From a virus, in UHGV virus genome UHGV-0371537: a DNA stretch of 64,000 bases, one strand, 5' to 3'. The stretch's first letter is position 1. Every line of letters begins with the position of its first letter. The notes under the pieces are model-generated. The model was not told the DNA's origin. It did no database searches and saw nothing but the letters and a program-made list of their open reading frames with translations. The translations under genes were made by a program, and so were the position numbers. Below, one piece after another: positions 9,767 to 55,441 of this stretch.

Positions 9767-9798
9767 TATACCTTTGTTCATAAATTTATTAGTTCAGC

Positions 9799-9834: not shown

Positions 9835-9838
9835 TATC

Positions 9839-11788: not shown

Positions 11789-11791
11789 ATA

Positions 11792-11822
11792 AGTAGAGCA
11801 GCAACATGATTGCTGCTCTACT
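11792..11822 (+). terminator. perfect 12-bp hairpin after the tailspike stop
   Basis: AGTAGAGCAGCA pairs with TGCTGCTCTACT around a 7-nt loop; weak T-tract. Confidence 0.4.
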
Positions 11823-11834
11823 TTCTCATACAAC

Positions 11835-11978: not shown

Positions 11979-11983
11979 ACAAA

Positions 11984-12010
11984 AACCCCGCTTCGGCGGG
12001 GTTAGTTTTA
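11984..12010 (+). terminator. rho-independent terminator (AACCCCGC-TTCG-GCGGGGTT)
   Basis: 8-bp GC-rich stem with TTCG loop followed by T-rich tail. Confidence 0.7.
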
Positions 12011-12278
12011 TCATCAGAATGGTATTGAATCACTGTTGGTAATAGTAGGCTCATTGCCTCTTGGTTGGTTTGGATGCTGTTCAGTATAACCGGTTCCAAC
12101 CAAACCAATGAGGCAGTGGGTAAGGGGGGTTTTTGTTGTACCCCAAACAATTCATTAGGTAGACTGTTTTAGTCAATTACGACTTAACTAACCTGAGAAA
12201 ATCCCTATGGGAAATGAACCAGATAACGTAACTCTAGCCAGACTCGAAGAGAGACTGAGAAACATTTTCGAAAACCAA

Positions 12279-12305
12279 AACCCCGCTTCGGCGGGGTTCT
12301 TATTA
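12279..12305 (+). terminator. rho-independent terminator, second exact copy
   Basis: Identical 20-mer AACCCCGCTTCGGCGGGGTT followed by CTTATTAT. Confidence 0.7.
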
Positions 12306-12336
12306 TATCCATGTTCATAAATTTTATTAGTTCAGG

Positions 12337-12373
12337 CTAAATACCCCATATTGGCAAATCCTCTATGGGGTAT
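12337..12373 (+). promoter_or_regulatory. late-promoter-like CTAAATA plus 9-bp hairpin covering the SD region
   Basis: ATACCCCAT (12341-12349) pairs with ATGGGGTAT (12365-12373); ATG 12380. Confidence 0.5.
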
Positions 12374-12379
12374 CTTCAA

Positions 12380-15022
12380 ATGACCAGAAACGTCGAGAGC
12401 ATCTTTGGAGCGGTCGTAACAGCTCCGCACCAGATTCCATACACTTACACAGCAACGGGCGGAGAGAAGTTTATCTCCCTCCCGTTCTATCCTGTTACGG
12501 GCTTCATCACCATCAATGGGGGTGTTCAGGTTCCGACAGACAATTTCGAAATCGATGGTAACACTGTCAACCTGGGTCGAGCACTTGAGACCGGGGATGT
12601 TGTGTATTGCTTGTTTGACAAGATCCTGTCTCCAGAAGATTATGAAAACGGGATCCGCATCTACAAGTTCCAGACCGTTGGTAACGAGACCTCATTCACC
12701 CCAGACTTCACGACATATGGTGTGCAGTCTCTGTATGTTGACGGGAAGTTCCAGGTGCCGGACGTCAACTACACGTATTCCCCAACCAATGGTGTCGTTA
12801 ATTTCCTGACTGGATCTCCGGCGGCTGGTGTTTGGGTTGTTGCAGAAATGTCTGTGAAGCAGCCAAACATTTCCCCTCTCTTCGATAGAACAATTCAAGA
12901 AGTGGCCAGATCTGCGAAAGTTAAGGACTCGGATGTTGTTATCGCTGTATCCGGTGCTTCACTTTCTTCCAAGAAAGTCATCTTTGATAAAACTGCGCAA
13001 AGATGGTACTCGCTGTCAACCGGGTTGACTTCCACGGTGGTCAGTTTGGTTGATGGAATCCTCACTCACTCTTCAGGTACTGTTGATTTAGGTGCGCTGG
13101 CGGTTACTCGTGGCGAATATTTCACCATGTCTGAAACCTTCACAACCGGGTTCACAATCAGAGTGAAGAATGAGATCGTCAGCGACGGAACATATCTTTA
13201 TCGCTGGGCTGGTAGTTTGCCAAAAGTTGTTTCCGCTGGAACAACCGTGGACAACACCGGGGGTGTGAGTGCGAGTGCCTGGGTGAGATCAGATCAAAGA
13301 ACCATCAGCACCGTCAAGAGACAACTACAGCAATCCTACACGATGGCAGAATTAGTGGCCAAAACTGACATACAGTTGGGCGACTCTTTCCTTTGCTCGG
13401 ACAGGGCATATGGTGTTTATGACGTCGTTTCTTCGGTGGCTTACCCACCAAATGGTTATTCGAACGTAGTCAGCACAGTGAACTCCGGTTTGGTGTTCAG
13501 ACTGCGTGTGGTTGCTAACACAATCGATTTGGAGCAAATTGGTGGTAAGCCTCTCATCTGGGGAACCCAAGAAATCGACTGTAAACAGGCGTTGCAGGAA
13601 GCTTTCTATCTCTTGCTCGACTCCGAGAGCGCGACGGTTGATCTGAAGTCCAACAAATGGTTGCTGTCATCTTATGTGTTCAACGACGTCAAACAGCGCC
13701 GGAAAATTGTTGGTAACAACGCCATTATCTATGGGATGCCAGATGACGGTGTGACCAACTATGATTACCTGGTGAGTACTGCATGGAACTACCAAGACAT
13801 CGAAGGTGTTACGTTCGACTGTCAGTGGAACCCTCGTTATGCATGCTGTCTCCGTATCACTCATGGGTACGGACGATACGATGGCCTGACGATTCGTAAA
13901 GCTCGTTGCGCCATTCAGGTTGGTAAGAGCGAGGAAAGCCGGGTCAGCCTCAGCGAATTCATGTTCACACAACTTCGCACTGAAGAATGTGCGAAAGTCG
14001 CAATTGTTCACGGGCTTTATTCTGTGCTTAACATCAGCGATTCCATCGTGGCTTGCGGCGAGGGCGCTTTCTGGAAAACATATGACTGTACCGGGTTCAC
14101 CATCTATGGTGGTCGCGTATTCCTGATGAAATGTGGGGGCAACAGCAACGTCATCAACTTAGACAACCCTTATGTCTATTGCGCAAATACCACGGTTGCA
14201 GGCGCTCCATATATCGGTTCGTTCAACGCAGTGCAGTGCGACTTTGAATTCAGGACTCGCTTCTGCATCGTGAACGATACGACGACAGTTTATCAAGATT
14301 ACAACCAAGCAGTTGTTCTTGATTCTTGCCGAATTGGTGTATTCGCCAGCCTGGACTCTCGTGCGTTGAATTTCTTTGAAAGTAACGTCGGATACCGTGG
14401 GCAGCTCCGGATTAAGAACACAGATCTTCTGTTCGACACCACCGTGTCTCTGCCGCCGATCAAAGCTGGTGGGCATACCATCGTGGATATTGATTATGAT
14501 TCGATCTACATTCCTAACTTCAGGGGTCCAAAGATGGTCAGCTTCGCTGGTTATCCTCCGGTTCTTCCAGTCGGGATTGTGTTCCAGAACAACGTTGGGG
14601 CTGACACTCCTCTTTCTGGTAACCAGTTTGTGAACTTTTCTAACCCGATCATTGGCTTGGATTCTGATTCCTCTCTGCTTAGCAGCAACTGGAACTCGTC
14701 CACCAAGAAATTCGAATTGCCTCCTGGTGGCTTGAGTGATGTTACCGTCACTGTACGTCTGACATTGAAAGATCCTGCCACCGCCCCGGTGACAGCGTTG
14801 GTGGAATACAACAACGGCACAGCGATTGGACTTGCATTCGGGACAATCCCGGTTGGATCCAAAGATCTTTTGATCACTGGCAGGATCCGGGATCTTCGAG
14901 ATACAGCCCAGATATATTGTATCACGAGTTCTACAGCGGCGTACACCCTCAGCAATACCGGGGCATATGACTCTACTATGACAATTGAGGCCAGCATTCG
15001 GCCTCCGAAGACTAAAAGTTAA
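12380..15022 (+). CDS. tailspike protein, long form (TSP2-like)
   Basis: Internal anchor domain (VTRGEYFTM, VKNEIVSDGTYLYRW); track start ATG 12365 lies in the 3-prime arm of the promoter-proximal hairpin, ATG 12380 is in frame 15 nt downstream. Confidence 0.75.
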   Translation: MTRNVESIFGAVVTAPHQIPYTYTATGGEKFISLPFYPVTGFITINGGVQVPTDNFEIDGNTVNLGRALETGDVVYCLFDKILSPEDYENGIRIYKFQTVGNETSFTPDFTTYGVQSLYVDGKFQVPDVNYTYSPTNGVVNFLTGSPAAGVWVVAEMSVKQPNISPLFDRTIQEVARSAKVKDSDVVIAVSGASLSSKKVIFDKTAQRWYSLSTGLTSTVVSLVDGILTHSSGTVDLGALAVTRGEYFTMSETFTTGFTIRVKNEIVSDGTYLYRWAGSLPKVVSAGTTVDNTGGVSASAWVRSDQRTISTVKRQLQQSYTMAELVAKTDIQLGDSFLCSDRAYGVYDVVSSVAYPPNGYSNVVSTVNSGLVFRLRVVANTIDLEQIGGKPLIWGTQEIDCKQALQEAFYLLLDSESATVDLKSNKWLLSSYVFNDVKQRRKIVGNNAIIYGMPDDGVTNYDYLVSTAWNYQDIEGVTFDCQWNPRYACCLRITHGYGRYDGLTIRKARCAIQVGKSEESRVSLSEFMFTQLRTEECAKVAIVHGLYSVLNISDSIVACGEGAFWKTYDCTGFTIYGGRVFLMKCGGNSNVINLDNPYVYCANTTVAGAPYIGSFNAVQCDFEFRTRFCIVNDTTTVYQDYNQAVVLDSCRIGVFASLDSRALNFFESNVGYRGQLRIKNTDLLFDTTVSLPPIKAGGHTIVDIDYDSIYIPNFRGPKMVSFAGYPPVLPVGIVFQNNVGADTPLSGNQFVNFSNPIIGLDSDSSLLSSNWNSSTKKFELPPGGLSDVTVTVRLTLKDPATAPVTALVEYNNGTAIGLAFGTIPVGSKDLLITGRIRDLRDTAQIYCITSSTAAYTLSNTGAYDSTMTIEASIRPPKTKS

Positions 15023-15030
15023 TTAACACA

Positions 15031-15050
15031 AGCCCTCTTCGGAGGGCTTT
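15031..15050 (+). terminator. rho-independent terminator between tailspike genes
   Basis: AGCCCTC-TTCG-GAGGGCT followed by TTTAACAT. Confidence 0.6.
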
Positions 15051-15079
15051 AACATGACTAAAACAACAGGAGATTCGTT

Positions 15080-17347
15080 ATGAATCCGCAATTTTCACAG
15101 CCGAAAGGCGCTGTCTCCAAAGAGACAAACAAAGACTCTATTGCACGCAAATTCGGTTGCAAGAAGTCTGAGGTTCTGTATGCCAAGACGGGCGCTGCCC
15201 TGACCGGTTACAAGGTGATCTATGATAAGGTCACTCAGCGCTCCTATGCTCTGCCTTCTAACCTGCCCGCTGGCGCTACCATCACCAGCTTGGCAGATGG
15301 TGTTCTTGTACATTCTGGCGGCACTGTAGACCTCGGAGCACTCGCTGTACTTCGGGAAGAGTTCGTAACTCTGGTTGAGAATTTCACTTCCGGGTTTACG
15401 ATTCGGGTCAAGAATGAAGTCGTGAGTGATGGAACGTACCTGTATCGTTGGGGTGGTTCGTTACCAAAGACCGTCAATGCTTCATCAACTGTTGCTGGGA
15501 CGGGTGGGATTTCTCCTAGTGCTTGGGTGGGCGTGGGAAACACTTCATTTTTGGGTGTTGACGGCGCAACATTAGTGGGGTATCAAAACCCTCGTTCAAC
15601 TGTGAACGAAACAATAAAATCCGCTCTTGATAAAATAAACATGAAAGTTATCTTTGCGGCGGATTGGGGTGTTAAAACTGATTCGTCTGATAACCAGGAT
15701 TCTTTGTGGTCCTTGGGTCAATATCTCTCTGCGTCTACGGAACCGCTGTACGTTGTATTTCCTAGGGGGATAAGTTTGGTCGGGTCACAGCAGTTTGCCG
15801 GGGCGTCTTCGCAAGGATATTCTTATCGACCCAACTATTTACGCCGCTCATGGGCGGACTTGTCCGCCGCTGGTTGGTTTTCCATCAGTGAGACTAATCA
15901 AAAGATCGTCTTAGACATGACCGGGTGGACTTTAAAACTGAACTCTGGATTCAAGCTCGGTTCATTTGATCCGATAACCGGAAATCCCGCACCCGATTCT
16001 CCATCAGAAGATTTAAATTTTATGGCGTCTTCTGGGTATATGATTAAGCTGTATCTCGCACCAAATGTGGAAATTTTGAATGGAACCACTGATGGTAACT
16101 TAACAGGTGCTATTTGGGGTGGTACTTATGGTCCAGCAGGGTATCAAGTCCCAGCATACAATATGTGGATTAATCAATCTGAAGGCGTTTACATATCTCG
16201 GCATACTTTTAAAAACTCTGCCGTTGACGGATTGTATCTTCAAGCCACAGGGAATAGAAATTTCCTAGACATTATCCCCAAAACCATTATCGACAACTGC
16301 ATCATAACAGACTGCGGTCGTAATTGTTATTCTCTCACTGGGGCTGCAAATGTTGAGATGAGAAACATCATTATAACCCGATCGGGTTCAAAGGCCAATG
16401 GCATTTCTACGCACGCAAGTGATCCGCAAGCAGGGGTGGACATTGAAGCGGAAGGTGGCAACCCATATAACATAACCTTCATTAATCCTAAGATCGTTGA
16501 TTGTGCTAAGAACGCTCTTATGACCGTGTCGGTGCCAGGAACTGTCAACGATGTGACTGTAGATGGAGGGGTTATTCACAGTTATTCAGAATTGGGCGCT
16601 GTGTTTAATTCAGGAAACTCTCGTAACATTAAATTCAAAAACGCCACTATAATTGGTGGGGTAATTGATTCTAAAAGCCCTGCAGAAATGGGTTTGGAAT
16701 GTTATTCATTCGAAAACTGCACGTTTGCAAACAGATATGGTAACACCTATGCAATGAATTATCTACTTTCTTTCCGAGTTAGTAAATTTGTTGGTAATAC
16801 CATTGATTTTAATATCCCCACCACTGGGGTAACAGCTCCGACCATCGTTATCAATGATCAAGATGGGGTTGCTAACGGTTACTCGTTAGAACGCTGTAAA
16901 CAGAATCGTATTATCCTGACCGGAAATGCTGCTAATATCACCTATGCCAACGGATTGGGGGGATTTAACTTTTTCCGCAATGCTGAAGTGTTTGTTGAAG
17001 CAGGGGGCATGACGGGAACAACGAAGATGTTGGTAGACACATGTTCTGCAGCGCCTGGAGGCATGCTTACAAATTCTGCTAACTTCAACTTTGGTGTCAC
17101 CATGACTAAAGATACAAGTCGGAATTTATGGTATGCTGCTAAACAATCTTATGTGGGTAGCGTACTGACAGCGGCTCCCACGGCGGCAGGCTCCCAGAAT
17201 GGAAGCCTGGATTTAGGGAGCGTGAATGGAAGATTTCGGACTGGATATTTCGATTCTGGGGTGATTGTCAGGGACGGAGTAACTGGTACGCATTATAGAG
17301 TGCGAGTTACCAGCGGTTCTCTGAATATTGTGGCGGATGAAAATTAA
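15080..17347 (+). CDS. tailspike protein, short form (TSP1-like)
   Basis: N-terminal anchor domain (VLREEFVTL, VKNEVVSDGTYLYRW); AGGAG SD; terminator upstream at 15031. Confidence 0.8.
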   Translation: MNPQFSQPKGAVSKETNKDSIARKFGCKKSEVLYAKTGAALTGYKVIYDKVTQRSYALPSNLPAGATITSLADGVLVHSGGTVDLGALAVLREEFVTLVENFTSGFTIRVKNEVVSDGTYLYRWGGSLPKTVNASSTVAGTGGISPSAWVGVGNTSFLGVDGATLVGYQNPRSTVNETIKSALDKINMKVIFAADWGVKTDSSDNQDSLWSLGQYLSASTEPLYVVFPRGISLVGSQQFAGASSQGYSYRPNYLRRSWADLSAAGWFSISETNQKIVLDMTGWTLKLNSGFKLGSFDPITGNPAPDSPSEDLNFMASSGYMIKLYLAPNVEILNGTTDGNLTGAIWGGTYGPAGYQVPAYNMWINQSEGVYISRHTFKNSAVDGLYLQATGNRNFLDIIPKTIIDNCIITDCGRNCYSLTGAANVEMRNIIITRSGSKANGISTHASDPQAGVDIEAEGGNPYNITFINPKIVDCAKNALMTVSVPGTVNDVTVDGGVIHSYSELGAVFNSGNSRNIKFKNATIIGGVIDSKSPAEMGLECYSFENCTFANRYGNTYAMNYLLSFRVSKFVGNTIDFNIPTTGVTAPTIVINDQDGVANGYSLERCKQNRIILTGNAANITYANGLGGFNFFRNAEVFVEAGGMTGTTKMLVDTCSAAPGGMLTNSANFNFGVTMTKDTSRNLWYAAKQSYVGSVLTAAPTAAGSQNGSLDLGSVNGRFRTGYFDSGVIVRDGVTGTHYRVRVTSGSLNIVADEN

Positions 17348-23959: not shown

Positions 23960-24676
23960 CTAAATACCTTCAAACGTATTTCTGATAAATTCGATAATAC
24001 GACTTTCATGTTTAAACCATTCAGTCGCACCGTCAAATCCCTTGTAGTTCATACTAAATGACATTTCATGAGCCTTTCTTTCCAGTTCTAACACGAATTG
24101 TCCATCATTTGACTTAAAAACTTCTAGAACATTGAACTCAAATGGAGTTGATCTTCTTAAAGATTTAAATCTATTATTTGGTGAATTGGACACCCCGATT
24201 TTCATACAGCCTTCTTCGCTGGTCAATATGTACAAATAACCGACTTTAAAAGGATTGTATCCGGAAGTTGCGCAGTAGGGGCACCAACTTTTACCATTCA
24301 CCAAATTACAGTATCTTGACTCCCAACGATGTCCTTCTGAACATTCCATAAGGCAAACTGTCACATTATCTTTATACTTTCCACCAATAAATTCTATGAA
24401 TTTACCACCGTTGGTTTCAGCATGGTCGGTTATTCTCTTTTTAGATTCTTGCTGGGTATTTCTCTTGTTGCCATTACATGTTGGGCACCAACTGCCTTTA
24501 TTGATCAAATTTCCATAAGATGCTGAACTCCATTGATGCCCTTCACCACACTGTAATATACATTTTGTCTGATTAGTGATAAATTTATCACCAACGAATC
24601 CCTGGAACAAACCACCTTTAGATAAGGCATATTTGTGAAGATTTTGAATAGCAGTTTCTTCTGTCAGGATTTTCAT
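23960..24676 (-). CDS. T5orf172 (GIY-YIG superfamily) domain protein with two N-terminal zinc ribbons; homing-endonuclease-like
   Basis: Two repeats C-x4-C..GH.W....C.L.N.KSWCP.C then GYLYIL....MKIGVSN....R..SLRR.....EWF, typical of T5orf172/MUG113; opposite strand between two neck genes. Confidence 0.65.
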   Translation of the reverse strand: MKILTEETAIQNLHKYALSKGGLFQGFVGDKFITNQTKCILQCGEGHQWSSASYGNLINKGSWCPTCNGNKRNTQQESKKRITDHAETNGGKFIEFIGGKYKDNVTVCLMECSEGHRWESRYCNLVNGKSWCPYCATSGYNPFKVGYLYILTSEEGCMKIGVSNSPNNRFKSLRRSTPFEFNVLEVFKSNDGQFVLELERKAHEMSFSMNYKGFDGATEWFKHESRIIEFIRNTFEGI

Positions 24677-26082: not shown

Positions 26083-26783
26083 TTATGAGTGCTATGTCAG
26101 AACGCCTGTTAAACACCCTTGGCGCTATCCAGGCGCGGGATGAAGTCGCTCAAGAAGTCATGGAGAAGACCGCGCCTGTGGCTGGAAAAGATTATGATCC
26201 GGATACAGGTGAATGGTTGGGTGAAAGACCTGCAGGGTATGAGCCTGTGGTGTTCCCTCCTTCACTGGATCCAGAAGAGCTGAAGTCAAAGGAATCCAAA
26301 GTTCCAGACTTTGATGACACGGATGCCACCACGGATTACAAACGCATCCGTGATACGACTTATGCGATGCAGGAAGCCACGATGTTCATGATGGGACAGG
26401 CGGCCAAACTCGCAACGACCACAGAAGCGCCTCGGGCGTTCACAGTCTTCAAGGAGTTGGGTGAACTCATGCGCGGCCTGAACAAAGACCTGATGGAGAA
26501 CCAGAAGACCATCAAGGCTGTTACGGGCGACAAAGAGCCTCCTGAAGAGACGACTGTTGAGGTCACGACTTCCCCTGATGGTACAACGACAGTCAACGTT
26601 GGCAAGCAAGCCAGATCTTCTCGTGATTTACTCAAGACTATTGAAGAGGCGCGCAAACGGGCTGAAGAGCGTACTGCGGCCAAAGCTGTAGGTAAAGAAG
26701 AGAAAGCCGAAGATGTGATCGATGTCGAGGCAGAGCCACAGCCGAAGGAAGAAGGTGAAGACAATGGCGTATCAGAAGCGTGA
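26079..26783 (+). CDS. gp16: terminase small subunit, T4 gp16-like
   Basis: Overlaps neighbours by 4 nt at both ends; central region resembles T4 gp16; charged C-terminus. Confidence 0.7.
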   Translation: MIMSAMSERLLNTLGAIQARDEVAQEVMEKTAPVAGKDYDPDTGEWLGERPAGYEPVVFPPSLDPEELKSKESKVPDFDDTDATTDYKRIRDTTYAMQEATMFMMGQAAKLATTTEAPRAFTVFKELGELMRGLNKDLMENQKTIKAVTGDKEPPEETTVEVTTSPDGTTTVNVGKQARSSRDLLKTIEEARKRAEERTAAKAVGKEEKAEDVIDVEAEPQPKEEGEDNGVSEA

Positions 26784-28974
26784 TGTAGAATACGCCCCGC
26801 TCAAGACGGGGTTTAAGACAGAAGACGTCAGACTGCGTATGGACCAAACGTTCATGCGCAAGCCGTCTGTGCGTGCTCCTCGCGTGGAGTTGATGCTAAC
26901 AGATGAGCAGGAATCGGAGTTCGTCGAGTGCGCGATGGATGCCCATTACTTCGCCGCCAACTACTACAAGATCACGACCATCGATAAAGGCTTCATCCTC
27001 TTTGACATGCACGATTACCAGAAGCAGTTGTTCCATGACTTCCAGGACTATCGATTCAATGCGGTCGTCCAGGCTCGTCAGTCTGGGAAATGTGTAAAAG
27101 GTGACACGCTTGTCACAGTTTACGATACTCTCAGCCAAGAAGAGTTCAGCATCACCGTCGAGGAGCTTCACAGCCGCTTCGAGGGACCGAATCATGCTGA
27201 GCCACTGAATGCCTTTGGTAAACACGATAAGTTCGTAGACAGCCGCTTCGGCAAGCGTTATTTTGTTCGCTGTGATAAGGGCTGGGTTCCGGTTATTGCA
27301 GCACACAAGACAAAACAGTATCAGGAATATGTGGTAATCACGACCACAGGTCGACGCATTCACGTCGCTGATGACCACATGTTCTTCAACAGCCACATGA
27401 AGGAAGTATTCGCCAAAGACCTGGAAGCCGGGTCTCTGCTCCAGACTGAAAATGGTTTGGAAGAAGTTGCAGAAGTGTGGCAGACAGGTGAAATGCACCA
27501 TATGTTCGACCTGCAAGTCAAGTCGAGCGATCAACGATATTACACAGGCGGTTTCCTCAGCCACAACACGACCGTCGTGGCAGCGTTCCTGCTCTGGTAT
27601 GCGATGTTCCACTCCGACAAAGAGATCGCAGTACTGGCGAACAAAGAGAAGCAGGCCATTGAAATCCTTGACCGTATCCGCAAGGCTTATCAGGATCTGC
27701 CATTCTTCCTACAACAAGGTTGTGAGAAGTTCGGTTCTACTCTGATCGAGTTCGAAAACGGTTCTAAGATCTATGCATACGCAACATCATCGGACTCCAT
27801 CCGTGGTCGTTCAGTATCACTCCTGTATGTCGACGAAGTAGCGTTCATTGAAAACGACTTTGAGTTCTGGGAGTCTACATTCCCTGCGATTGCATCTGCA
27901 GAGACTTCCCGTTGTATCCTGACCAGTACACCAAAAGGCCAGCGCGGGTTGTTCTACGATATCGTCACCAAGGCGAATCCAGACCACCCACAGTACAACG
28001 ACTTCAAACTCACGGAGGTGCCTTGGTATCGTGTGCCAACATACACCAAGGATCCAAACTGGGAATCCAAACAGAGGGCGAAGCTGGGGGATGCACGTTT
28101 CGATCAGGAATTCGGTATCAAGTTCCGTGGTTCCGTTGGTTCATTGATCCCGGCCAAGTGTCTGGACAAAATGACCTCGAAGCTCTATCTGGAGCCGAAC
28201 GAGTTCACCAAGATCTACCACGAATACGATCCGAAGCGTATCTACATGGGCATCGCAGATACAGGCAAGGGTGTGGAGGGGGATTACTCTGTTCTGACGA
28301 TATTGGACATCACAGACTACCCTCACAAGATTGCGGCCAAGTATCGAAACAACACGATACCGCCAATGATGTATGCATACACTATCGCCGATATGGGCGA
28401 GAAGTATGGCACATGTCCAATGCTGGTAGAAACCAACAACGACGTGGGTGGTCAGGTAATCACAATTCTATATCAGGAAATTGAATACCCAGAAATCATC
28501 TTCACCACAACAGATGCGAAGGGTACTGGTAAACGAATTGGCGGTCGTCGACCTGAACCTGGTATCAACACCAACAAGAAGGTTCGATCAAACGGTTGTG
28601 CTAACCTCAAGGCGCTTATTGAACGTGAAATGTTGGTTATTGATGACCAAGATACAATTGACGAACTCAGTACATTCGTATGGACTGGGACAAGGTATGA
28701 AGCCGATGATGGTTGTCATGACGACTGTGTAATGCCTCTTGTGCTCTATGCATGGGCGGTGAAACAAGAATGGTTTAGTGATCTCACCAACTCCAGCATC
28801 TCGGTTGATATGAGGGGGCGGTTGTCTGCGATGGAAGAATCTCAGATGATGCCTTTCGGCGGGGTTCTTTCAGCTCCCGACCCACACTCTGTCGAGAGCA
28901 TACCGGGCTTTGGTGGAGTCCAGGTTTATGACGAACGTTCCGGTATGACCATGGAAGAATGGCTGAGACGGTGA
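26764..28974 (+). CDS. gp17: terminase large subunit (gp17-like) carrying a mini-intein in the Walker A loop
   Basis: Exteins read VVQARQSGK|TTVVAAFLLWYAMF (Walker A) and resemble T4 gp17 ATPase and nuclease regions; start taken at ATG 26764 (track ATG 26722 also possible). Confidence 0.9.
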   Translation: MAYQKRDVEYAPLKTGFKTEDVRLRMDQTFMRKPSVRAPRVELMLTDEQESEFVECAMDAHYFAANYYKITTIDKGFILFDMHDYQKQLFHDFQDYRFNAVVQARQSGKCVKGDTLVTVYDTLSQEEFSITVEELHSRFEGPNHAEPLNAFGKHDKFVDSRFGKRYFVRCDKGWVPVIAAHKTKQYQEYVVITTTGRRIHVADDHMFFNSHMKEVFAKDLEAGSLLQTENGLEEVAEVWQTGEMHHMFDLQVKSSDQRYYTGGFLSHNTTVVAAFLLWYAMFHSDKEIAVLANKEKQAIEILDRIRKAYQDLPFFLQQGCEKFGSTLIEFENGSKIYAYATSSDSIRGRSVSLLYVDEVAFIENDFEFWESTFPAIASAETSRCILTSTPKGQRGLFYDIVTKANPDHPQYNDFKLTEVPWYRVPTYTKDPNWESKQRAKLGDARFDQEFGIKFRGSVGSLIPAKCLDKMTSKLYLEPNEFTKIYHEYDPKRIYMGIADTGKGVEGDYSVLTILDITDYPHKIAAKYRNNTIPPMMYAYTIADMGEKYGTCPMLVETNNDVGGQVITILYQEIEYPEIIFTTTDAKGTGKRIGGRRPEPGINTNKKVRSNGCANLKALIEREMLVIDDQDTIDELSTFVWTGTRYEADDGCHDDCVMPLVLYAWAVKQEWFSDLTNSSISVDMRGRLSAMEESQMMPFGGVLSAPDPHSVESIPGFGGVQVYDERSGMTMEEWLRR
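27091..27567 (+). mobile_element. mini-intein (159 aa) within the terminase large subunit P-loop
   Basis: Starts Cys (CVKGDTLV), ends HN followed by Thr +1; blocks F/G-like MFDLQVKSSDQRYYTGGFLSHN; splits GK|T of the Walker A; no endonuclease domain. Confidence 0.8.
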
Positions 28975-37161: not shown

Positions 37162-37190
37162 TAATTAAAACAATGGCTTACGTCCTAACA

Positions 37191-37220
37191 AACCCCGCTT
37201 CGGCGGGGTTTTTGTTTGTT
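37191..37220 (+). terminator. rho-independent terminator after the major capsid gene, third exact copy
   Basis: AACCCCGCTTCGGCGGGGTT followed by TTTGTTTGTT. Confidence 0.75.
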
Positions 37221-37268
37221 CATAATACCAAACAGGTTATACTAGATACCATACGAAGGAGAACAATT

Positions 37269-38741
37269 ATGTATCAGGTAATCTGTAGTGTCTGTCATGA
37301 ACAGTTCAAAGCATCCAGGAAAGATAAGAAATTTTGTTCAGATGGTTGTAAAACGTTTTCTAGCAACACATTGAAAAATCTATCACCGGAATTTGTTGCT
37401 GATGCGACGTGCCTTTCGGATGAAGAATCTTATCGTCAATTTTTCCATAAACACATGTTCACTAAGAACAATAAATTGGATATTCAGAAATGCAAATCTA
37501 ATTTGTTAATGAAGCACATCAGATTGGACCTGTTGATATTTGCCAACGCCCATAACACCCTACAAGATCTGGCCTGTAAAGTCACAGCATGGTTACACAA
37601 TAGAACCGTGAAAATGTGCCCTGTGTGTTCCAAAGAAACCAACTTTTACATCAATGACAAAGATTACAGAACATATTGTTCCGAAGAATGTTATCAGATT
37701 TCTATGTGTAAAGGCGGGGTTGGTCGGAAAGCTATAGAGGCTTCAAATATATCCAAATATGGGAGCTGCTCTACACTACAACTACCTGGTGTGAGGAAGA
37801 AGGCGTTGATAACATTACAAGAACGTTATGGTGTTGACAATCCCATGAAAAACTCGATCATATTGAAACGTGCATTGTTTAACAATGGTTCTGTCAGGAA
37901 TAAGAAATCTTCTTATGAAAAAGAAATATCCGAGTTCCTCACCTCAATAGGAGTTGTGAACAAGGTTTCTAATTACAGTATATTGTCAGGCAAACAATTG
38001 GATATCTACTGCCCGGAACACAAACTTGCAATAGAATTCAATGGGTTGTACTGGCATTCAGAAGTTTTTAAAGAAAAACGGTATCATCTAGAAAAGACTG
38101 AAATGTGTGAATCTCAGGGTATCCAGTTGATCCATATTTGGGAAGACGAATGGGCTGAGAAACAGGATGTGGTCAAATCTCTTCTGAAGGCAAAACTCGG
38201 CATTAAAACGCCTGTCTCATACGCTCGCCAACATAAAGTTGTTTGGGGTAATATAAACGGTGTGAGGGAGTTTCTAGACGCCCATCATATACAAGGTTCC
38301 GTGTCGTCCACCCACCACTTATCGCTAATTGATAAGGCTGGTGTGATACAGGCCGTGATGTTGTTTACCAAAAGGAAAGATGGCCTGGAATTAGTCAGAT
38401 TTGCCTCTAATGATTGCCACGGGGCGTTCAGTAAACTTCTATCGCACTTCAGAAGGAAATTTGTTGGTGTCCCAATCTATTCTTTTGGCGACAGGTGTGT
38501 CGTAAGCAGGCTGTCGAACATTTACCTATCCCACAGGTTCATAGAAGAGGAAGTACAGAAGCCGGATTACAAATATCACAAGCCTGGTACATTTATGCGT
38601 GAGCACAAGTTCGGTTTCAGAAAAGATTCATTTGCTCGGATGGGTTATGACATAGAAGGCAAAACAGAAAGCCAGTTAGCAACCGAAGCCGGGCTGGTCA
38701 GGATTTGGAATTGTGGTCTGATCAAATATACCTTGAACTAA
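37269..38741 (+). CDS. freestanding homing-endonuclease-like protein with zinc fingers and a Vsr-like PD-(D/E)xK domain
   Basis: LAIEFNGLYWHSE matches the Vsr/DUF559 signature; CxxC/CxxxC clusters at the N-terminus; track start 37173 would read through the terminator at 37191. Confidence 0.65.
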   Translation: MYQVICSVCHEQFKASRKDKKFCSDGCKTFSSNTLKNLSPEFVADATCLSDEESYRQFFHKHMFTKNNKLDIQKCKSNLLMKHIRLDLLIFANAHNTLQDLACKVTAWLHNRTVKMCPVCSKETNFYINDKDYRTYCSEECYQISMCKGGVGRKAIEASNISKYGSCSTLQLPGVRKKALITLQERYGVDNPMKNSIILKRALFNNGSVRNKKSSYEKEISEFLTSIGVVNKVSNYSILSGKQLDIYCPEHKLAIEFNGLYWHSEVFKEKRYHLEKTEMCESQGIQLIHIWEDEWAEKQDVVKSLLKAKLGIKTPVSYARQHKVVWGNINGVREFLDAHHIQGSVSSTHHLSLIDKAGVIQAVMLFTKRKDGLELVRFASNDCHGAFSKLLSHFRRKFVGVPIYSFGDRCVVSRLSNIYLSHRFIEEEVQKPDYKYHKPGTFMREHKFGFRKDSFARMGYDIEGKTESQLATEAGLVRIWNCGLIKYTLN

Positions 38742-47289: not shown

Positions 47290-47368
47290 TCAATCTCCAG
47301 CCTGATGCTATAATGTGTGGGCGGGGGTTTCCCGCCCATTTGAAATGATTCTTCTACAAGAGGCTGAA

Positions 47369-48025
47369 ATGAGGAATCAACCGTTTGTATATCATTTGTT
47401 AGGAAAGGATGGTTCTTTCTATTTTGGTTCTAGAACGAAATTGGGTGCGCATCCTTTACAATTGTTCACTTCGTATTTCACTTCTTCACAAACGGTCAAG
47501 GAAATCATATCTAAGAAAGGTTCTGATTTCTTTGATGTGATATTTGTAGAATTGTTCGACTCTCCAGAAGATGCATATTGGAGAGAGCAGCAGTTGATTA
47601 GTGAGAACATTGATCACCCAAAATGTTTAAACAAATCATTTCAACCACTGGGTTGTGGTATCGCCAACGGTAGGTCAGCGGGACCCAAACATCACCGAGT
47701 TGGTGTCTCGAGTTGGTTGAAGGGTAAGTCTGGGAATCTTCATCCCATGCACGGAAGAACTGGTAAAAGCCACCCCGCCGCAGGAATAAAACCCTGGGAC
47801 ACCGGGGCTGCGCTGCTACACAACACCAGACCGATGTGGTTAAAGGCTGGGGTAGTGTATGATCACTGGGTTTCTACTGGTGATGGGTGCCATAGAATTG
47901 CCCGTTTGTTCTCTATCAAAGAGAACACCGCAACGAGTATGTTAAACAAATTCAAAGAGGGCTGGAACCCGTATGATGACGACGCTTGGGTTCTGTTCTG
48001 TAAACTATATCATGGAAATACATAA
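47369..48025 (+). CDS. GIY-YIG homing endonuclease (Seg-like)
   Basis: FVYHLLGKDGSFYFGSRT is a GIY-YIG core; NUMOD-like HPMHGRTGKSHP; ATG 47369 with GAGG SD; inserted between clamp and clamp-loader genes. Confidence 0.7.
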   Translation: MRNQPFVYHLLGKDGSFYFGSRTKLGAHPLQLFTSYFTSSQTVKEIISKKGSDFFDVIFVELFDSPEDAYWREQQLISENIDHPKCLNKSFQPLGCGIANGRSAGPKHHRVGVSSWLKGKSGNLHPMHGRTGKSHPAAGIKPWDTGAALLHNTRPMWLKAGVVYDHWVSTGDGCHRIARLFSIKENTATSMLNKFKEGWNPYDDDAWVLFCKLYHGNT

Positions 48026-49952: not shown

Positions 49953-50825
49953 ATGACAACTACATTTTCTAAGAACGTGAATCTGAATCTGGCTTTCGGT
50001 AATGCAAAGGGTGATGTGACGTCGCCCAATTTTGACAAGATCCGCAATCAGGCGAAACTGGTGCTGGAAGAAACCCGTGAACTGCTGGAAGCGGCGTATT
50101 TCGACCACGAGGTGAAAATTGAGTTCACTGCATCTCCGCGAGTCCTGAAAGAACCTGCTGTTGCCGACATCAAAGGCATTATGCGCCAGATTCTGGACGC
50201 TCAGGGCGACATCACAACAGTCAATGACGGCGTGGCTCACATTGCTGGTTTCGACGGCGATGAGTGCCTACAGCGCGTTTATGCTTCCAACATGAGCAAG
50301 TTCGTCCGCAATGCAGCTGAAGTTGTTCCGGCGCTGGAGTATTACTACAACAAAGGCTTCCCGCGTGAAAGCCTGCGCATCGAAGGTGAATTTCCACAGG
50401 CGTGCATCAAAGTGGTGGATACCATCACAATCGACGGCAAAGAGTATCCAGCAGGTAAGTTCCTGAAGAACATGGCGACATTCAAAGAGCCTGACTTCTC
50501 TGATATGCTGACTGCTGAGCCTAAGCGCCAGATCACAGAAATCATCTTGACGGGCACAGCCACTCCAGGCCAGCTTGGCTCAAATGAACATGCTGGTGTC
50601 GCTTTCGCTCCATTCGACTTCGTGGACGAGATCGTAGAATATTCCAAGATGGGCTTCCAGGCGTATTCAGGCGAAGCGATTGAGAGCTACATTCCTGTGT
50701 TTGTTTTTAATGAAGACAACTTCCCAACCCTGCCGATGATCTGGGGTGAATGGAAAGCCAACGTGCGCATTTACGTGGCTAGCCCAGTGCAGTCTTCAAT
50801 CACCCAGCTGACCCGTATCGATTAA
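49953..50825 (+). CDS. hypothetical protein (290 aa), possible MazG-like N-terminal domain
   Basis: LVLEETRELLEAA resembles the EE..E motif of all-alpha NTP pyrophosphohydrolases; weak. Confidence 0.4.
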   Translation: MTTTFSKNVNLNLAFGNAKGDVTSPNFDKIRNQAKLVLEETRELLEAAYFDHEVKIEFTASPRVLKEPAVADIKGIMRQILDAQGDITTVNDGVAHIAGFDGDECLQRVYASNMSKFVRNAAEVVPALEYYYNKGFPRESLRIEGEFPQACIKVVDTITIDGKEYPAGKFLKNMATFKEPDFSDMLTAEPKRQITEIILTGTATPGQLGSNEHAGVAFAPFDFVDEIVEYSKMGFQAYSGEAIESYIPVFVFNEDNFPTLPMIWGEWKANVRIYVASPVQSSITQLTRID

Positions 50826-50893
50826 GATATCCGGTTATTCACTAAACAACAGAGGCTATAATGGCCTCTGTTTTCGTATTCTAAGAGGATACC

Positions 50894-52093
50894 ATGAAAG
50901 ATAAAGCCCTGGACGTCCCGTACTGCGGTGTCCGCGAAGAAAAGATAAAGTCGGCCAAACCGGTTCTCAGTCCGACCCATACCCGCCTGTCTTATGACTG
51001 GATGAGCGAGCGCTATAAGATCCACGTTCGAAAGGACGTCCAGCGTCTTCCTGCTCCTTGGACGAATAATCCTATACTACGGCAGGTCAAGTTCTGTAAC
51101 GTCCGGAGAGAGCACGACAGGCAGTCTCTTAACCTGATCAACAACATCGTCAACAACGATGCTCTGGGTATGGCAGACAAGATGTTTAACTGCGTGCTGT
51201 TCCGCATGTTCAACCTCTGGGATCCGATCCAGGCTATCGGCGGCGCGATGACGATCAAAGAATTCGCCAAGATTAATCTTGACGCAACCCGTGAACGACT
51301 TCAGAAGTTCGAGGCTGACGGTGGTAAGGTATTCACCAATGCCTTCAACACAGGCGGCCTGAAGCAATGCCTGGCTTTCCCTGAGATGGTTGTCAACCAC
51401 AAGGAGCAGCTCTTCGGTGGGATGATGGTGAAAGTGTATCGCGTTGGCCAGGGTATTGTGGACGAGATGGACTACAAGGTCGCCAAGAAGCTGGTCGAAG
51501 AGAATCCTGGTGAATATACCATCGAGGGATGGGAACCGTACATGCCAATGCGTGTCATCCGTTCCCTGAAGGCATTCGTCAACAAGTATCCAAATTACTT
51601 CCATGACCTGCTGCGCCTTGGTACTCCTCTGGAAGTATACCAGCGCATGTACGACGACATCGAAGGGCTTGGTCCATTCCTGGCTTATCAGATCTGGGTG
51701 GACTTCACGTACATTCCTGAGTATCCGTTTAGTGAGAACCACTTCACGGTTGCTGGACCAGGCTGTCGTGCAGGCATCGACCTGATGTTCCTGAACAAAG
51801 ACGGTATGACCCACGAAGAATGCATCTTCTGGTTACGGGACAACCAGGACGCAGTGTATTCCCAATATGGATATGTTCGTGAGCAATTCTGGTCTGCGGA
51901 AGAGCCTTGGGATCAGTGTATGAATGTTCAACAATTAGAAAACCACTTTTGTGAATTGTCGAAATATACCCGTTGTGTAGAGGCTTTACAGCAAGGTAAA
52001 AAACCGCGCGGGAAGGTTGGATACGATGGGGAAGGACAACCTAAAGCGGCGACATCTGGTTCTAAAAACCTACTAAATTTATTTAAAAAGTAA
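50894..52093 (+). CDS. hypothetical protein (399 aa)
   Basis: Long ORF; no motif recognised by eye. Confidence 0.5.
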   Translation: MKDKALDVPYCGVREEKIKSAKPVLSPTHTRLSYDWMSERYKIHVRKDVQRLPAPWTNNPILRQVKFCNVRREHDRQSLNLINNIVNNDALGMADKMFNCVLFRMFNLWDPIQAIGGAMTIKEFAKINLDATRERLQKFEADGGKVFTNAFNTGGLKQCLAFPEMVVNHKEQLFGGMMVKVYRVGQGIVDEMDYKVAKKLVEENPGEYTIEGWEPYMPMRVIRSLKAFVNKYPNYFHDLLRLGTPLEVYQRMYDDIEGLGPFLAYQIWVDFTYIPEYPFSENHFTVAGPGCRAGIDLMFLNKDGMTHEECIFWLRDNQDAVYSQYGYVREQFWSAEEPWDQCMNVQQLENHFCELSKYTRCVEALQQGKKPRGKVGYDGEGQPKAATSGSKNLLNLFKK

Positions 52094-52152
52094 CTTACTT
52101 TGTGAGTTAAGAAAGTATATTATAACAGGAACTTTCATTTGGAGTTCCTGTT

Positions 52153-53082
52153 ATGTTTTACGAATTATTGATTTCTAAAGGCGGTAAACCGCATTTTATC
52201 AAGAAGTATTTGAGGATGGTTCAATCTTTCAAATATTCTGATAGTGACTACACTGAATTACACCACATCCTTCCCAAGAGCATGTTCCCTGAATATTCTA
52301 AAGATAAGATAAATTTGGTTCGATTAACAGGCAGACAACATTATCTTGTCCATGTATGCTTGGCCTTGGCTTTCCCAAACACGAGAATGGTGTATGCTGT
52401 TGTAGCTATGAGAAAGGGAGGAAGAAGAAATAAATCAGGTATTCGGTTTAATTCTCATTTGTATGAAAGTTTCAGAATTAAATTCAGCGAACAACTATCT
52501 TTACAATGGAAAGGGGTTTCTCGGTTTGTGGGTAAAGACAACCCAATGTATGGGAGAAGAGGAAAGAATAATCCCCAATATGGGTATAAGAGAACTCCAG
52601 AGCAAGTCAAGAAAATTACCAAAGGATTGATGAAAATCCATGAAAGGATGGCTTCTGATCCGGAATATAAAAGAGAAGTTTTAGAGCAGCGTCGTACCAA
52701 TACGGATTTAAAGCAATTTTCTGAGCGTTCCCGCCAAGCAAAACTCGGTGAACTCAATCCTAATTATGGGAAGGACTTAACCAACTCTTTCACACCGGAA
52801 CAACGCGCCAAACAGAAAGAAAACGCTCAGAAAGGCATGTTGGCTAAGATGCCTTGGGAGAAGGGTAAATGGAACCCCGACAATGACGTATATTGGGAGA
52901 AAGCTGATCAATTCCTTGAAGCCCTGAATACGATGAAACGTTCAGAAGCCCTCTTGTTCGTGTATGGAACAAAAGATCTGAAGGCGTTTAATGCCACCAG
53001 TGGGATAATCGAACGTTTCAATAAAGGCTGGGAACCATTAAAATGCGTAAAATGGTTAAAAAGATATAAGGGTGAAAAATGA
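52153..53082 (+). CDS. HNH homing endonuclease
   Basis: ELHHILPKSMFPEYSKDKINLVRLTGRQHYLVH is an HNH core; repeated NP.YG(R/K) NUMOD-like motifs. Confidence 0.7.
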   Translation: MFYELLISKGGKPHFIKKYLRMVQSFKYSDSDYTELHHILPKSMFPEYSKDKINLVRLTGRQHYLVHVCLALAFPNTRMVYAVVAMRKGGRRNKSGIRFNSHLYESFRIKFSEQLSLQWKGVSRFVGKDNPMYGRRGKNNPQYGYKRTPEQVKKITKGLMKIHERMASDPEYKREVLEQRRTNTDLKQFSERSRQAKLGELNPNYGKDLTNSFTPEQRAKQKENAQKGMLAKMPWEKGKWNPDNDVYWEKADQFLEALNTMKRSEALLFVYGTKDLKAFNATSGIIERFNKGWEPLKCVKWLKRYKGEK

Positions 53083-53303
53083 GCTGGAAATTGTTCAAAC
53101 TGTGTAAAGCGACTGATGAGTTTCTTCTGAAAGCCCGTATGGAAGGACGTCTCGTGTACACTCCTTACCCAGGCACTATTCGGTTTTGTAGTACGTTGAG
53201 GAAACAGAAATCAGTTTCTGGGCCAAGACGTTTGTTGATGCAGGGGATGCTGGCATACAACTCCGGTGATACTCGGCCTTGTGACGGTGGTAAGATCGTC
53301 TGA
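53079..53303 (+). CDS. hypothetical protein (74 aa)
   Basis: Short ORF overlapping the HNH gene stop. Confidence 0.3.
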   Translation: MSWKLFKLCKATDEFLLKARMEGRLVYTPYPGTIRFCSTLRKQKSVSGPRRLLMQGMLAYNSGDTRPCDGGKIV

Positions 53304-53422
53304 ATAAAGATTCCCTTTACTTCATTCTTCAATAACTTTTTTCAACGTATTATTGACCTCACTTAAACGAAGCGCCCTGGCAAACGGGGCGCACATTTGA
53401 ACTGAAACAGGAAGACTACATC

Positions 53423-55441
53423 ATGTCAGAATTTAAGCCCTTCGCAGTAGCTGTTAACAACAACGTGCTGGCCATGTCAGCAACTGGTCTGTTCATGACC
53501 AACATCGATAAAGATGCTCTGTGGGATCTGTATCTGTCTTCTTTCCCTGCTGGCACCAACCCGCTCTACCGTGAGCGTACCGAGCACGACTGCACCTGCT
53601 GCAAACAATTCATCCGTAATATCGGTGGTGTGGTTACCATCGACACTGACCTGAACGTGATCTCTATCTGGGATAACATTCAGCTGGGCAACGAATACGA
53701 CGTTGTCGCTGCGGCGCTGTCTGCGTATGTCAAGCAACACGCAATCGTCGACGTGTACTTCAACGATACCAAGAAAGTCGGTGTTGAGTCGAATCACGAA
53801 ATGAAAGACGGTAATGTCCGCACCTACAACCACTTCCACACCGACCTGCTGCCCAGCTATGTTCTGCGGGCTGATGCCATCGCTTCTAAGAAGGGTGAAA
53901 TCCGTCAGGCGATTGAAGTGTTTGAGCGCGGCCTGCGTGAACTGTCTCTGGAATCGGCTGAAATCGTTCTGGAATTGATCGACCAGAATTCTCTGTATCG
54001 CGGTGAAGAGCACAAGGCGGCAGTGCAGGCGTTCGTGGTGAACAAGACCCTGTACGAACAGACTGCAGAAGAGAAACGCGCTCTGTGGGCTTGGCGCACT
54101 GGCTATCATGCGAACGGTCATACCCCTCACGGCATTCGTAATACCGTGATTGGCTCTCTGTTGGTAGACCTCAACGAAGGCCGCGACCTGGAAACCGCCG
54201 TCAAGTCTTTCGAAGCCAAAGTAGCTCCGACGAACTACAAGCGCCCAACCGCGCTGGTAACTAAGTCGATGATCGAAAATGCGCAGAAAGAAGTTGAAGC
54301 GCTGGGTCTGACCGATTCACTGGGTCGCCGTTATGCCGTGTATGACGATCTGACCATCAACAACGTTCTGTTTGCCGACCTGGCAGCACAGAAGAAGATG
54401 GACCCGTTTGCTCAGCTGGCGTCTGAAGTGAAGACTCCGACCAAGTCCCTGGACAAGGTTGAAGAGATCACCATCGACGACTTCCTGGCGAACGTGCTGC
54501 CGAAAGCGCACTCAATGGAAGTGCTGGTTGAGAACTCTCACACTGGCAACCTGATGTCCCTGATCGCTCCGGCTACGGCAGGTGCTCCTAACCTGTTCAA
54601 GTGGAACAACGGCTTCAGCTGGTCATACAACGGTGAAGTGGCCGACTCCATCAAAGAGCGCGTGAAGACAGCAGGTGGCAACGTTGACGGTTTCCTCCGT
54701 GTGTCGCTGGCGTGGCATAACAACGACGACCTGGATCTGAGCCTGAACGATCCTTTACACAATCATGTGTATTACCACAACCGTCGCTCAGCAACTGGCG
54801 CAACCCTGGATATCGACATGAACGGTATGGACGGCATTGACCCGAATCGCCGCCCGGTGGAGAACATCTTCTTCAGCGATGAGCGCAAGCTGCGTAATGG
54901 TCTGTACGAGTTCTATGTCACTAACTTCAGCCAGCGTGAAACCTGTGATATGGGCTTCGAAATCGAAGTCGAATACAAAGGCCAGACCAAGCGTTTTTCG
55001 CATCCTGGCCTGAAGCACAAAGATCGCACTCTGGCTGTTGTGATTGATGTCCGCGCCGGACAGGTGGTAGACATCCGCTCTACTCTGAAAGACGATGCTC
55101 GTTCTCAGGAAATCTGGGGCATCAAGACCTCGGTCTTCCAGAAGGTACAGCTGGTTCTGAACTCACCAAACCATTGGGACGGCGAGCAGACGGGCAACAA
55201 GCACGTGTTCTTCATCCTGGAAGGTTGTGCTAACCCTGTCGGCACTCGTGGCTTCTATAACGAATATCTGAAGCCGGAACTGGATAAACACCGTAAGGTT
55301 TTTGAAATGTTAGGTAGTAAGATGAAAGTACAGCCAAGCACTGAGCAGCTGTCCGGTCTGGGCTTCTCTACCACCCAACGCAACCACGTGTTCGTGAAGG
55401 TGAGCGGCTCGTTCAACCGCACTGTAAAAGTTGTGTTCTAA
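53423..55441 (+). CDS. hypothetical protein (672 aa), unknown function
   Basis: Uninterrupted 2-kb ORF; no Walker, HxGH or other motif recognised. Confidence 0.55.
   Translation: MSEFKPFAVAVNNNVLAMSATGLFMTNIDKDALWDLYLSSFPAGTNPLYRERTEHDCTCCKQFIRNIGGVVTIDTDLNVISIWDNIQLGNEYDVVAAALSAYVKQHAIVDVYFNDTKKVGVESNHEMKDGNVRTYNHFHTDLLPSYVLRADAIASKKGEIRQAIEVFERGLRELSLESAEIVLELIDQNSLYRGEEHKAAVQAFVVNKTLYEQTAEEKRALWAWRTGYHANGHTPHGIRNTVIGSLLVDLNEGRDLETAVKSFEAKVAPTNYKRPTALVTKSMIENAQKEVEALGLTDSLGRRYAVYDDLTINNVLFADLAAQKKMDPFAQLASEVKTPTKSLDKVEEITIDDFLANVLPKAHSMEVLVENSHTGNLMSLIAPATAGAPNLFKWNNGFSWSYNGEVADSIKERVKTAGGNVDGFLRVSLAWHNNDDLDLSLNDPLHNHVYYHNRRSATGATLDIDMNGMDGIDPNRRPVENIFFSDERKLRNGLYEFYVTNFSQRETCDMGFEIEVEYKGQTKRFSHPGLKHKDRTLAVVIDVRAGQVVDIRSTLKDDARSQEIWGIKTSVFQKVQLVLNSPNHWDGEQTGNKHVFFILEGCANPVGTRGFYNEYLKPELDKHRKVFEMLGSKMKVQPSTEQLSGLGFSTTQRNHVFVKVSGSFNRTVKVVF

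Follow-up and report, generated by a model that had tools for sequence, protein, structure and literature searches.

The open reading frame (ORF) at 52153-53082 on the plus strand of the window, as the 64,000-nucleotide stretch of viral DNA analysed here is called, is very likely a free-standing homing endonuclease gene (HEG) of the T4 MobE type. Its product combines an HNH nuclease domain with a linker carrying three NUMOD3 motifs and a helical recognition module, and would home into the HEG-free allele of the same locus. The gene is identified by the ORF itself, a match to PHROG 655, its GC content, its dN/dS and the annotation of copies in relatives. It runs from ATG to TGA and encodes 309 amino acids, and the ORF call gave exactly the boundaries that a first-pass annotation, made from the letters of the DNA, had assigned to it. 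That annotation had also read the gene as an HNH homing endonuclease, a reading upheld by an HNH and NUMOD3 protein of MobE type, by presence and absence of the gene among relatives and by recombination tracts in its flanks. In GenBank, near-identical copies already carry a homing endonuclease annotation. The entries of relatives read 'homing endonuclease' or 'HNH endonuclease domain protein, T4 MobE-like', and Det7 gp37 was labelled 'T4 MobE-like' by its depositors. No experimental characterisation of any allele was found in the searched literature. With the HEG, the already very large family of phage homing endonucleases gains a further member. The gene also accounts for local mosaicism among Ackermannviridae phages under development for biocontrol and therapy.

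The window belongs to an Ackermannviridae phage, its nearest match among the records being Escherichia phage AV101 (Aglimvirinae), at 93% identity over the region. The upstream neighbour of the HEG encodes a 399-residue protein (50894-52093) that matches Pfam PF18723, '5-hmdU DNA kinase, helical domain', at E 4e-81, and that is named alpha-glutamyl/putrescinyl thymine pyrophosphorylase clade 1 in the record of one relative. It is called the PF18723 gene below and is taken to be a thymidine-hypermodification gene. From what is established for Ackermannviridae, the thymidine in the DNA of these host phages is expected to be hypermodified. Downstream lie an ORF of 74 codons (orf74, 53079-53303) and a conserved gene of 672 codons (53423-55441, PHROG 1735). 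The HEG is a separate ORF between two genes, outside any intron or intein; a check of 51500-53800 found no group I or group II intron and no Rfam family, all matches being sub-threshold and attributable to chance. The window holds no paralogue of the HEG at E<=1e-5. The GC content of the gene is 0.39, compared with 0.486 for the whole window, and it lies in an island of 0.32-0.41 (51900-53100) bordered on both sides by DNA of about 0.50-0.55. The low GC of this region is counted as a sign of foreign origin.

Nuclease and DNA-binding modules

The N-terminal part of the protein, residues 1-90 (52153..52422, + strand), is assigned as an HNH nuclease domain, presumably of the beta-beta-alpha-metal type, from invariant residues, Pfam matches of homologues, the relation to T4 MobE and McrA, and a structural model. 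The catalytic motif occupies residues 35-67 (52255-52353, + strand) and reads E35-L-H37-H38-I-L-P41-K ... N54-L-V-R-L-T-G-R-Q-H63-Y-L-V-H67, with H38, N54, H63 and H67 as its key positions. At E<=0.001, 19,518 cluster representatives were returned by an exhaustive profile search. The query was aligned with 87 of them, all but one 22-43% identical to it; the sole invariant columns of this 88-sequence alignment are H37, H38, P41, N54, H63 and H67. Since none of the Pfam HNH models (PF01844, PF13392 and related) scores on the 309-residue protein itself at E<=1, the HNH assignment is made through homologues and profiles. The 'canonical HNH core' of the first-pass annotation stands as far as the motif and its invariance among the 88 sequences are concerned; 'canonical' is slightly generous for a protein with no direct Pfam HNH score.

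PHROG 655, 'homing endonuclease', gives the best family match, which covers the full length of the protein (E 2e-63, far beyond chance), and PHROG 12434, 'HNH endonuclease', matches residues 16-90. PF01844 is found at E<=0.001 in 30 of the 88 homologues, one of which (P0010) scores 25.7 bits against a cut-off of 21.4. T4 MobE is 41% identical to the protein over 56 residues by BLASTP (E 5e-13), and its comparison with the family profile by hhalign gives a probability of 99.8% and an E of 5.6e-30; the Mob-type motif HHI(I/L)P...NL..LT.R(E/Q)H..AH aligns between the two proteins. The family profile also matches the HNH domain of McrA (6ghc, E 0.004). An AlphaFold model built from the deep alignment has a mean pLDDT of 85 and places strands 34-38 and 55-59 and helix 60-73 around the HNH residues with pLDDT >90. 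Comparison of the full-length model with the PDB by Foldseek gave nothing below E 0.5, an NCBIfam scan of the protein returned no family, and the one match of a phmmer search of PDB sequences, a coiled coil of SMC, was rejected as spurious. From these comparisons it is concluded that the protein is a predicted HNH nuclease of MobE type that also has three NUMOD3-type motifs and, at its C-terminus, a helical module.

HNH nucleases also assist the terminase in DNA packaging, as does the HK97 gp74 type, and such an accessory role for the 309-residue protein is extremely unlikely. The zinc-binding cysteines of packaging-type HNH proteins are missing from its motif, it carries NUMOD3 and homing-type DNA-binding modules, its gene lies about 23 kb from that of the terminase large subunit (26722-28974), and most relatives package their DNA normally without it.

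Three motifs of the form NPxYG, typical of NUMOD3, follow the nuclease domain: NPMYG at residues 130-134, NPQYG at 140-144 and NPNYG at 202-206. The first two stand in tandem and, with the helix that follows, form a predicted DNA-binding linker (52531..52620, + strand). Pfam NUMOD3 (PF07460) matches residues 136-155 with 23.2 bits against a cut-off of 20.4 (E 6.4e-5), so that one of the three motifs passes the Pfam cut-off, and the repeated NUMOD-like motifs claimed from the first reading are in this sense confirmed. Among the 88 homologues, matches at E<=0.001 are found to NUMOD3 in 77, to the NUMOD-like domain of I-HmuI in 20 and to NUMOD1 in 16. The third motif belongs to a helical C-terminal module, residues 194-305 (52732..53067, + strand), which is delimited by a match to the endonuclease F-LimVI and modelled with a pLDDT of 90-97. 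This module is presumed to be the target-recognition domain.

The solved DNA-binding domains of I-TevI (1i3j, E 9e-5) and I-HmuI (1u3e, E 0.02) are matched by the family profile; these matches belong to the profile and not demonstrably to the C-terminal domain of the window's own protein. Both enzymes share with the HEG product a modular architecture, in which the nuclease is connected through an extended linker containing NUMOD3-type elements to a small recognition domain at the C-terminus. They differ from it in being intron-encoded, whereas the HEG of the window is free-standing, and the nuclease of I-TevI is of the GIY-YIG and not of the HNH class.

Between alleles, dN/dS is 0.04-0.25 for each module and each pair, which indicates that selection preserves the protein against decay. 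Strong purifying selection throughout, in the DNA-binding part as in the other modules, would also suit a formerly mobile gene that has been domesticated, either as a DNA-binding regulator of neighbouring genes or as a weapon with which co-infecting relatives are degraded while the gene itself is not copied. The gene lies inside a replication and DNA-modification block and is tightly packed with orf74 (ATGA), and it is documented that I-TevI can repress its own promoter and that free-standing endonucleases cause marker exclusion (Edgell et al. 2010, PMC2988022). Domestication is nevertheless unlikely. The catalytic residues are invariant, phages of different subfamilies share difference-free stretches of the locus, and the gene is patchily distributed, being present in about 43 of well over 200 relatives, which argues against an essential host function.

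The slot behind the PF18723 gene

The whole locus is spanned by 42 records, compared with 268 that have any match to a 4.5-kb query and 396 that have any match to a 2.6-kb query. The left junction linked to the HEG, comprising the altered tail of the PF18723 gene and the spacer (52030-52152, 123 nt), is found in 43 phage records, from 38 Salmonella, 2 Escherichia and 3 Dickeya phages. Its identity to the window is at least 84.7% in all 43 and 96-100% in 39 of them. The ancestral, HEG-free tail is present in 107 records. Presence/absence variation among relatives, on which the first-pass annotation had beforehand let its reading stand or fall, thus takes the form of 43 carriers against 107 records with the ancestral sequence.

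Individual inspection of 28 loci revealed six states of the slot. It may be empty (ZQ1, Vi01 and others) or hold orf74 alone (Klebsiella 0507-KN2-1, Yersinia CAU_YEP3), the HNH gene with orf74 (the window, AV101, PMBT18, Det7, Se-J and barely), the HNH gene alone (SS9), the GIY-YIG gene F-LimVI (Dickeya XF4 and LIMEstone1) or an unrelated zinc-ribbon ORF of 135 codons (pertopsoe and others).

On the left side of the insert, similarity to HEG-free relatives extends through GGTTGGATAYGAYGG and no further (52029). All HEG+ alleles lack the final ~85 nt that the PF18723 gene has in its ancestral form. In their place stands a replacement 3' tail (52030..52093, + strand) encoding ...EGQPKAATSGSKNLLNLFKK, where the ancestral gene encodes ...GGEYKKRCDEVVLKRGSVNLLDRLKKPE. 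The carrier tail is shorter, AT-rich and recoded, and retains just the pattern GS-NLL---KK of the ancestral one. The DNA of the ancestral tail is strongly conserved among empty alleles, with an invariant run of 24 nt, and no copy of it with up to 3 mismatches occurs elsewhere in the window. On the right side, similarity to HEG-free phages resumes at 53297..53310 (+ strand; …CTGAATAAAGA), and the stop codon of the ancestral upstream gene falls within this string. Two right junctions are in use, one at the start of orf74 (the window) and one at the old stop codon (SS9, XF4), and the same tail is removed by both.

No column in 1.1 kb of left flank distinguishes HEG+ from HEG- alleles, and the only such columns in the right flank, 53294 and 53296, both lie at the junction. 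The confinement of diagnostic columns to the junction argues against a target distant from the insertion point. From these alignments we infer that the homing site may lie in or across the ancestral ~85-nt tail, and that the recoded tail may confer immunity on the carrier. The C-terminal tail of the PF18723 protein is also variable in distant relatives that carry no endonuclease, so part of the apparent replacement could be ordinary divergence carried by recombination.

Recombination and exchange of endonucleases

The HEG+ phage AV101 and the HEG- phage ZQ1 are near-twins, with 0-1 differences per 50 bp across most of a 6.5-kb comparison. Their differences cluster between about 51400 and about 53350, a segment made up of the insert, ~630 bp on its left and ~50 bp on its right. 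The two form a near-isogenic pair suited to homing crosses. The window and Salmonella phage PMBT18 show zero differences over 750 bp (51900-52650) and raised identity across 50220-53300, while their far flanks are 70-80% identical. The HEG is itself mosaic. The Det7 allele equals that of SS9 over the first 190 codons and has a pS of 0.57 to it in the C-terminal module; the PMBT18 allele equals that of barely over the last 180 codons and has a pS of 0.53 to it in the HNH domain. As judged from these alignments, the flanks appear to have been co-converted with the HEG, and the history of the gene is discordant with that of the genome backbone. Difference-free stretches in phages of different subfamilies point to very recent transfer and not to long vertical retention. 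The HEG has spread recently between related Salmonella, E. coli and Dickeya phages, and a region at a DNA-hypermodification gene is being overwritten between them.

Local identity tracts can also arise from ordinary phage mosaicism without nuclease action, and the ORF could then be a passenger, a moron at a variable intergenic hotspot, with its nuclease not the driver. Unrelated inserts do occupy the same site elsewhere (orf74 alone, the 135-codon zinc-ribbon ORF and other small ORFs), and AV101 and ZQ1 have two smaller patches of differences away from the HEG, at ~50200-50650 and ~54750-55100. Such a passenger is nonetheless very improbable, as the ORF encodes a complete nuclease and DNA-binding architecture typical of homing endonucleases and under purifying selection, and is always linked to the recoded tail of the adjacent gene. 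The same site is also occupied, in other phages, by an endonuclease that has this recognition module and belongs to a different catalytic class. Such a pair of classes with a common module is expected of a homing site, and chance would hardly account for it.

This second endonuclease is F-LimVI of the Dickeya phages XF4 and LIMEstone1, whose gene directly follows the PF18723 gene, in the same slot as the HEG. It was listed as a free-standing, I-TevI-like GIY-YIG enzyme (Adriaenssens et al. 2012, PMC3296691), and its N-terminus is GIY-YIG/SegE-like according to sub-threshold Pfam matches and PHROG 314. By BLASTP the full-length 309-residue protein is 61% identical to F-LimVI over 176 residues; with residues 191-309 as the query, identity is 80% over 112 residues (194-305 of the window's protein). 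The SS9 allele is closer, being ~95% identical to F-LimVI over the last 116 residues, the final 67 of which are the same in both; the DNA of the two is 88% identical, and the similarity continues into the right flank. Like the HEG, F-LimVI replaces the ancestral tail of the PF18723 gene. Unlike the HEG, it has neither an intergenic spacer nor a hairpin, its ATG lying one base after the upstream stop codon.

The same slot, a C-terminus that is ~95% common and a GIY-YIG N-terminus together indicate two catalytic classes with one recognition module; as far as the alignments tell, the HNH and GIY-YIG enzymes share that module and one predicted site. The close match of the recognition module allows the swap to be placed inside the ORF, around residue 190. 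Three Dickeya phages have, in this slot, the HNH-type left junction (tail and spacer) at 98.4% identity, and in two of the three a 'NUMOD3 motif family protein' is annotated under the match, which indicates that they hold the HNH version. It is tentatively proposed, as a serious possibility somewhat short of a probability, that the HNH enzyme and F-LimVI are rivals for a single homing site, namely the 3' tail of the thymidine-hypermodification gene, in phages with hypermodified DNA, and that they are products of a natural and recent swap of nuclease domains.

That cognate endonuclease genes at one position may differ in class entirely, and that domains are shuffled among them, has been described, as has the finding that, where phages that are dissimilar elsewhere have recombined, endonuclease genes mark the edges of the tracts (Barth, Dunham and Seed 2023, PMC10448857). 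The replacement of mobC/mobE by segH/hef is an example that PMC3296691 cites from Sandegren et al. 2005. The present case differs from the general interchange of classes (PMC10448857) in that two classes share one recognition module at ~95%. No description of an HNH/GIY-YIG swap at this site was found in the searched literature. An HNH/GIY-YIG pair with a common recognition module is a natural test of endonuclease modularity and, if the swap is real, makes it possible to ask how the catalytic module affects the position of cleavage, the choice between a nick and a double-strand break, and the tolerance of modified DNA.

The window contains a GIY-YIG-like endonuclease gene of its own at 47315-48025, which is also recognised by PHROG and which shares 41% identity with F-LimVI in the nuclease domain. 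It was found by homology to F-LimVI, and a six-frame regular-expression search of the window for the GIY-YIG motif gave no hit. This gene is plausibly a relative of the donor of the swapped domain. A T5orf172 gene (23960-24676, - strand) and a Vsr/DUF559-like gene (37173-38741, + strand) were confirmed as well. The count of 'at least five' selfish elements proposed at first therefore holds for four, namely the HNH, GIY-YIG-like, Vsr-like and T5orf172 genes; the fifth, an intein in the terminase, has a sub-threshold match only.

Expression, the homing cycle and orf74

The 59-nt spacer before the HEG folds into two hairpins. In the RNA fold of 52085-52175, which has a minimum free energy (MFE) of -26.3 kcal/mol (z = -5.5; none of 200 shuffled sequences folds as well), an 8-bp hairpin covers the stop codon of the upstream gene (52091..52109, + strand), and a 15-bp hairpin (52121..52155, + strand) takes both the Shine-Dalgarno sequence GGAG (52141-52144) and the AUG (52153-52155) into its pairing. 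The former occurs in the MFE fold of five of seven HEG+ loci and is missing from AV101 and SS9. The 15-bp stem is retained in all seven, where the hairpin varies only in the length of its loop and by a single U-A to U-G substitution; this amounts to conservation without covariation. This hairpin is probably a translational brake on the HEG, as predicted from its fold and position. Hairpins that sequester the ribosome-binding site control I-TevI, I-TevII, I-TevIII, segB and Aeh1 mobE (Edgell et al. 2010, PMC2988022). A scan of 51700-53500 for sigma-70 promoters and terminators gave no site on the + strand and fewer matches than in shuffled sequences, and no dedicated promoter is therefore claimed for the HEG.

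During a mixed infection the enzyme would bind the corresponding locus of a related phage in its HEG-free form and nick or cut it, most likely within the conserved last ~85 nt of the PF18723 gene. The break would be repaired by phage recombination with the HEG+ genome as the template, and repair would copy in the HEG together with the recoded, and therefore uncuttable, tail and variable lengths of flank. Translation of the HEG would probably be held down by the hairpin around its ribosome-binding site and start codon. Within this scheme we infer the cleavage, whether as a nick or as a double-strand break, as well as where the target lies and that the hairpin is regulatory.

Among the closest known enzymes is MobE. 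The N-terminal HNH domain of T4 MobE is homologous to that of the HEG product. The T4 and Aeh1 mobE genes, like the HEG, are free-standing, lie directly downstream of a conserved gene of nucleotide metabolism and show co-conversion of flanks, and Aeh1 mobE shares with the HEG a hairpin that sequesters the ribosome-binding site (PMC2988022). The T4 protein differs in having 141 residues instead of 309 and a different C-terminal region; unrelated C-terminal regions are usual in the Mob family (PMC2988022). The target gene is nrdB for MobE and would be the PF18723 gene for the HEG. MobE nicks one strand (PMC2988022), whereas the activity of the HEG product is predicted from sequence.

The small resident gene orf74 (53079..53303, + strand; PHROG 19743, E 1.6e-51) begins with an ATG that overlaps the stop codon of the HEG (ATGA). 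It occurs in ~30 Klebsiella phages, which are endonuclease-free where inspected (Taipeivirus 0507-KN2-1), and likewise in Yersinia phage CAU_YEP3. In both 0507-KN2-1 and CAU_YEP3 its start codon shares an identical ATGA with the stop codon that ends the PF18723 gene. The SS9-type HEG+ allele lacks it. Orf74 does not belong to the endonuclease, although in the allele type of the window it is transferred together with the HEG. A role of orf74 as an immunity or partner gene was considered and ruled out, since it stands in the same place without an endonuclease in the Klebsiella and Yersinia phages. In phage barely the stop codon of the endonuclease has been lost, and the ORFs of the HEG and orf74 are fused.

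Variants of the slot in relatives

In several relatives, the site between the upstream PF18723 gene (thymidine hypermodification) and the downstream 672-aa gene differs from that of the window, in which it is occupied by the HNH enzyme, a MobE-type homing endonuclease. In Salmonella phage barely (L012 5263-6411) the endonuclease gene has lost its stop codon and continues into orf74, the 74-aa ORF directly downstream, resulting in a single ORF, the whole of which is labeled 'homing endonuclease' in the record. In several kutterviruses, among them Salmonella phage pertopsoe (L003 2297-2704), the slot contains an unrelated 135-aa ORF, which begins before the PF18723 gene has ended, so that the two share the stop codon region of the latter. 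The ORF has weak zinc-ribbon matches. A third type of gene tail accompanies the 135-aa ORF in these phages.

The 672-aa gene downstream

The 672-aa gene (53423-55441) contains a stretch of unusually conserved DNA, 53507-53673. Blastn matches to this stretch, with 73-86% identity, are found in very distant phages: Cronobacter PBES 02, Alteromonas AD45-P1, Xanthomonas RiverRider, Caulobacter Ccr29 and Vibrio pVa5. The stretch encodes the motif ERTEHDCTCCKQFIRNIGG of the 672-aa protein (PHROG 1735). In Dickeya phage XF4 (L005 3188-3469) the gene, located downstream of the GIY-YIG endonuclease F-LimVI, is cut to its first 89 codons, and small ORFs stand in place of the remainder, up to nadV. N-terminal fragments of this gene type form separate PHROG families of their own.

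Other nuclease genes, terminase and tailspikes

A 236-aa ORF (47315-48025, +), directly upstream of the clamp-loader gene, is a second free-standing endonuclease gene in the window. It matches PHROG 314 'homing endonuclease' (E 5e-16), and its Pfam GIY-YIG/SegE matches do not reach the threshold. The N-terminal part shares 41% identity with the nuclease domain of the Dickeya F-LimVI, while at the C-terminus there is a distant resemblance to the HNH enzyme's C-terminus. Two further nuclease genes are low in GC. One (23960-24676, -) encodes a T5orf172/MUG113-domain protein with Pfam matches above the cut-offs, and the product of the other (37173-38741, +), 522 aa long, contains a DUF559/Vsr-like domain and matches PHROG 3339 'homing endonuclease' (E 5e-157).

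The first-pass annotation placed an intein in the terminase large subunit (26722-28974, +). Such an insertion is plausible but unconfirmed: the 750-aa protein has about 150 residues beyond those covered by the profile, and the Intein_splicing match at residues 171-240 is weak, scoring 19 bits against a cut-off of 35.8. Three tailspike genes (6725-17347, +), which carry Tail_spike_N domains, are also low-GC islands, consistent with host-range modules exchanged horizontally.
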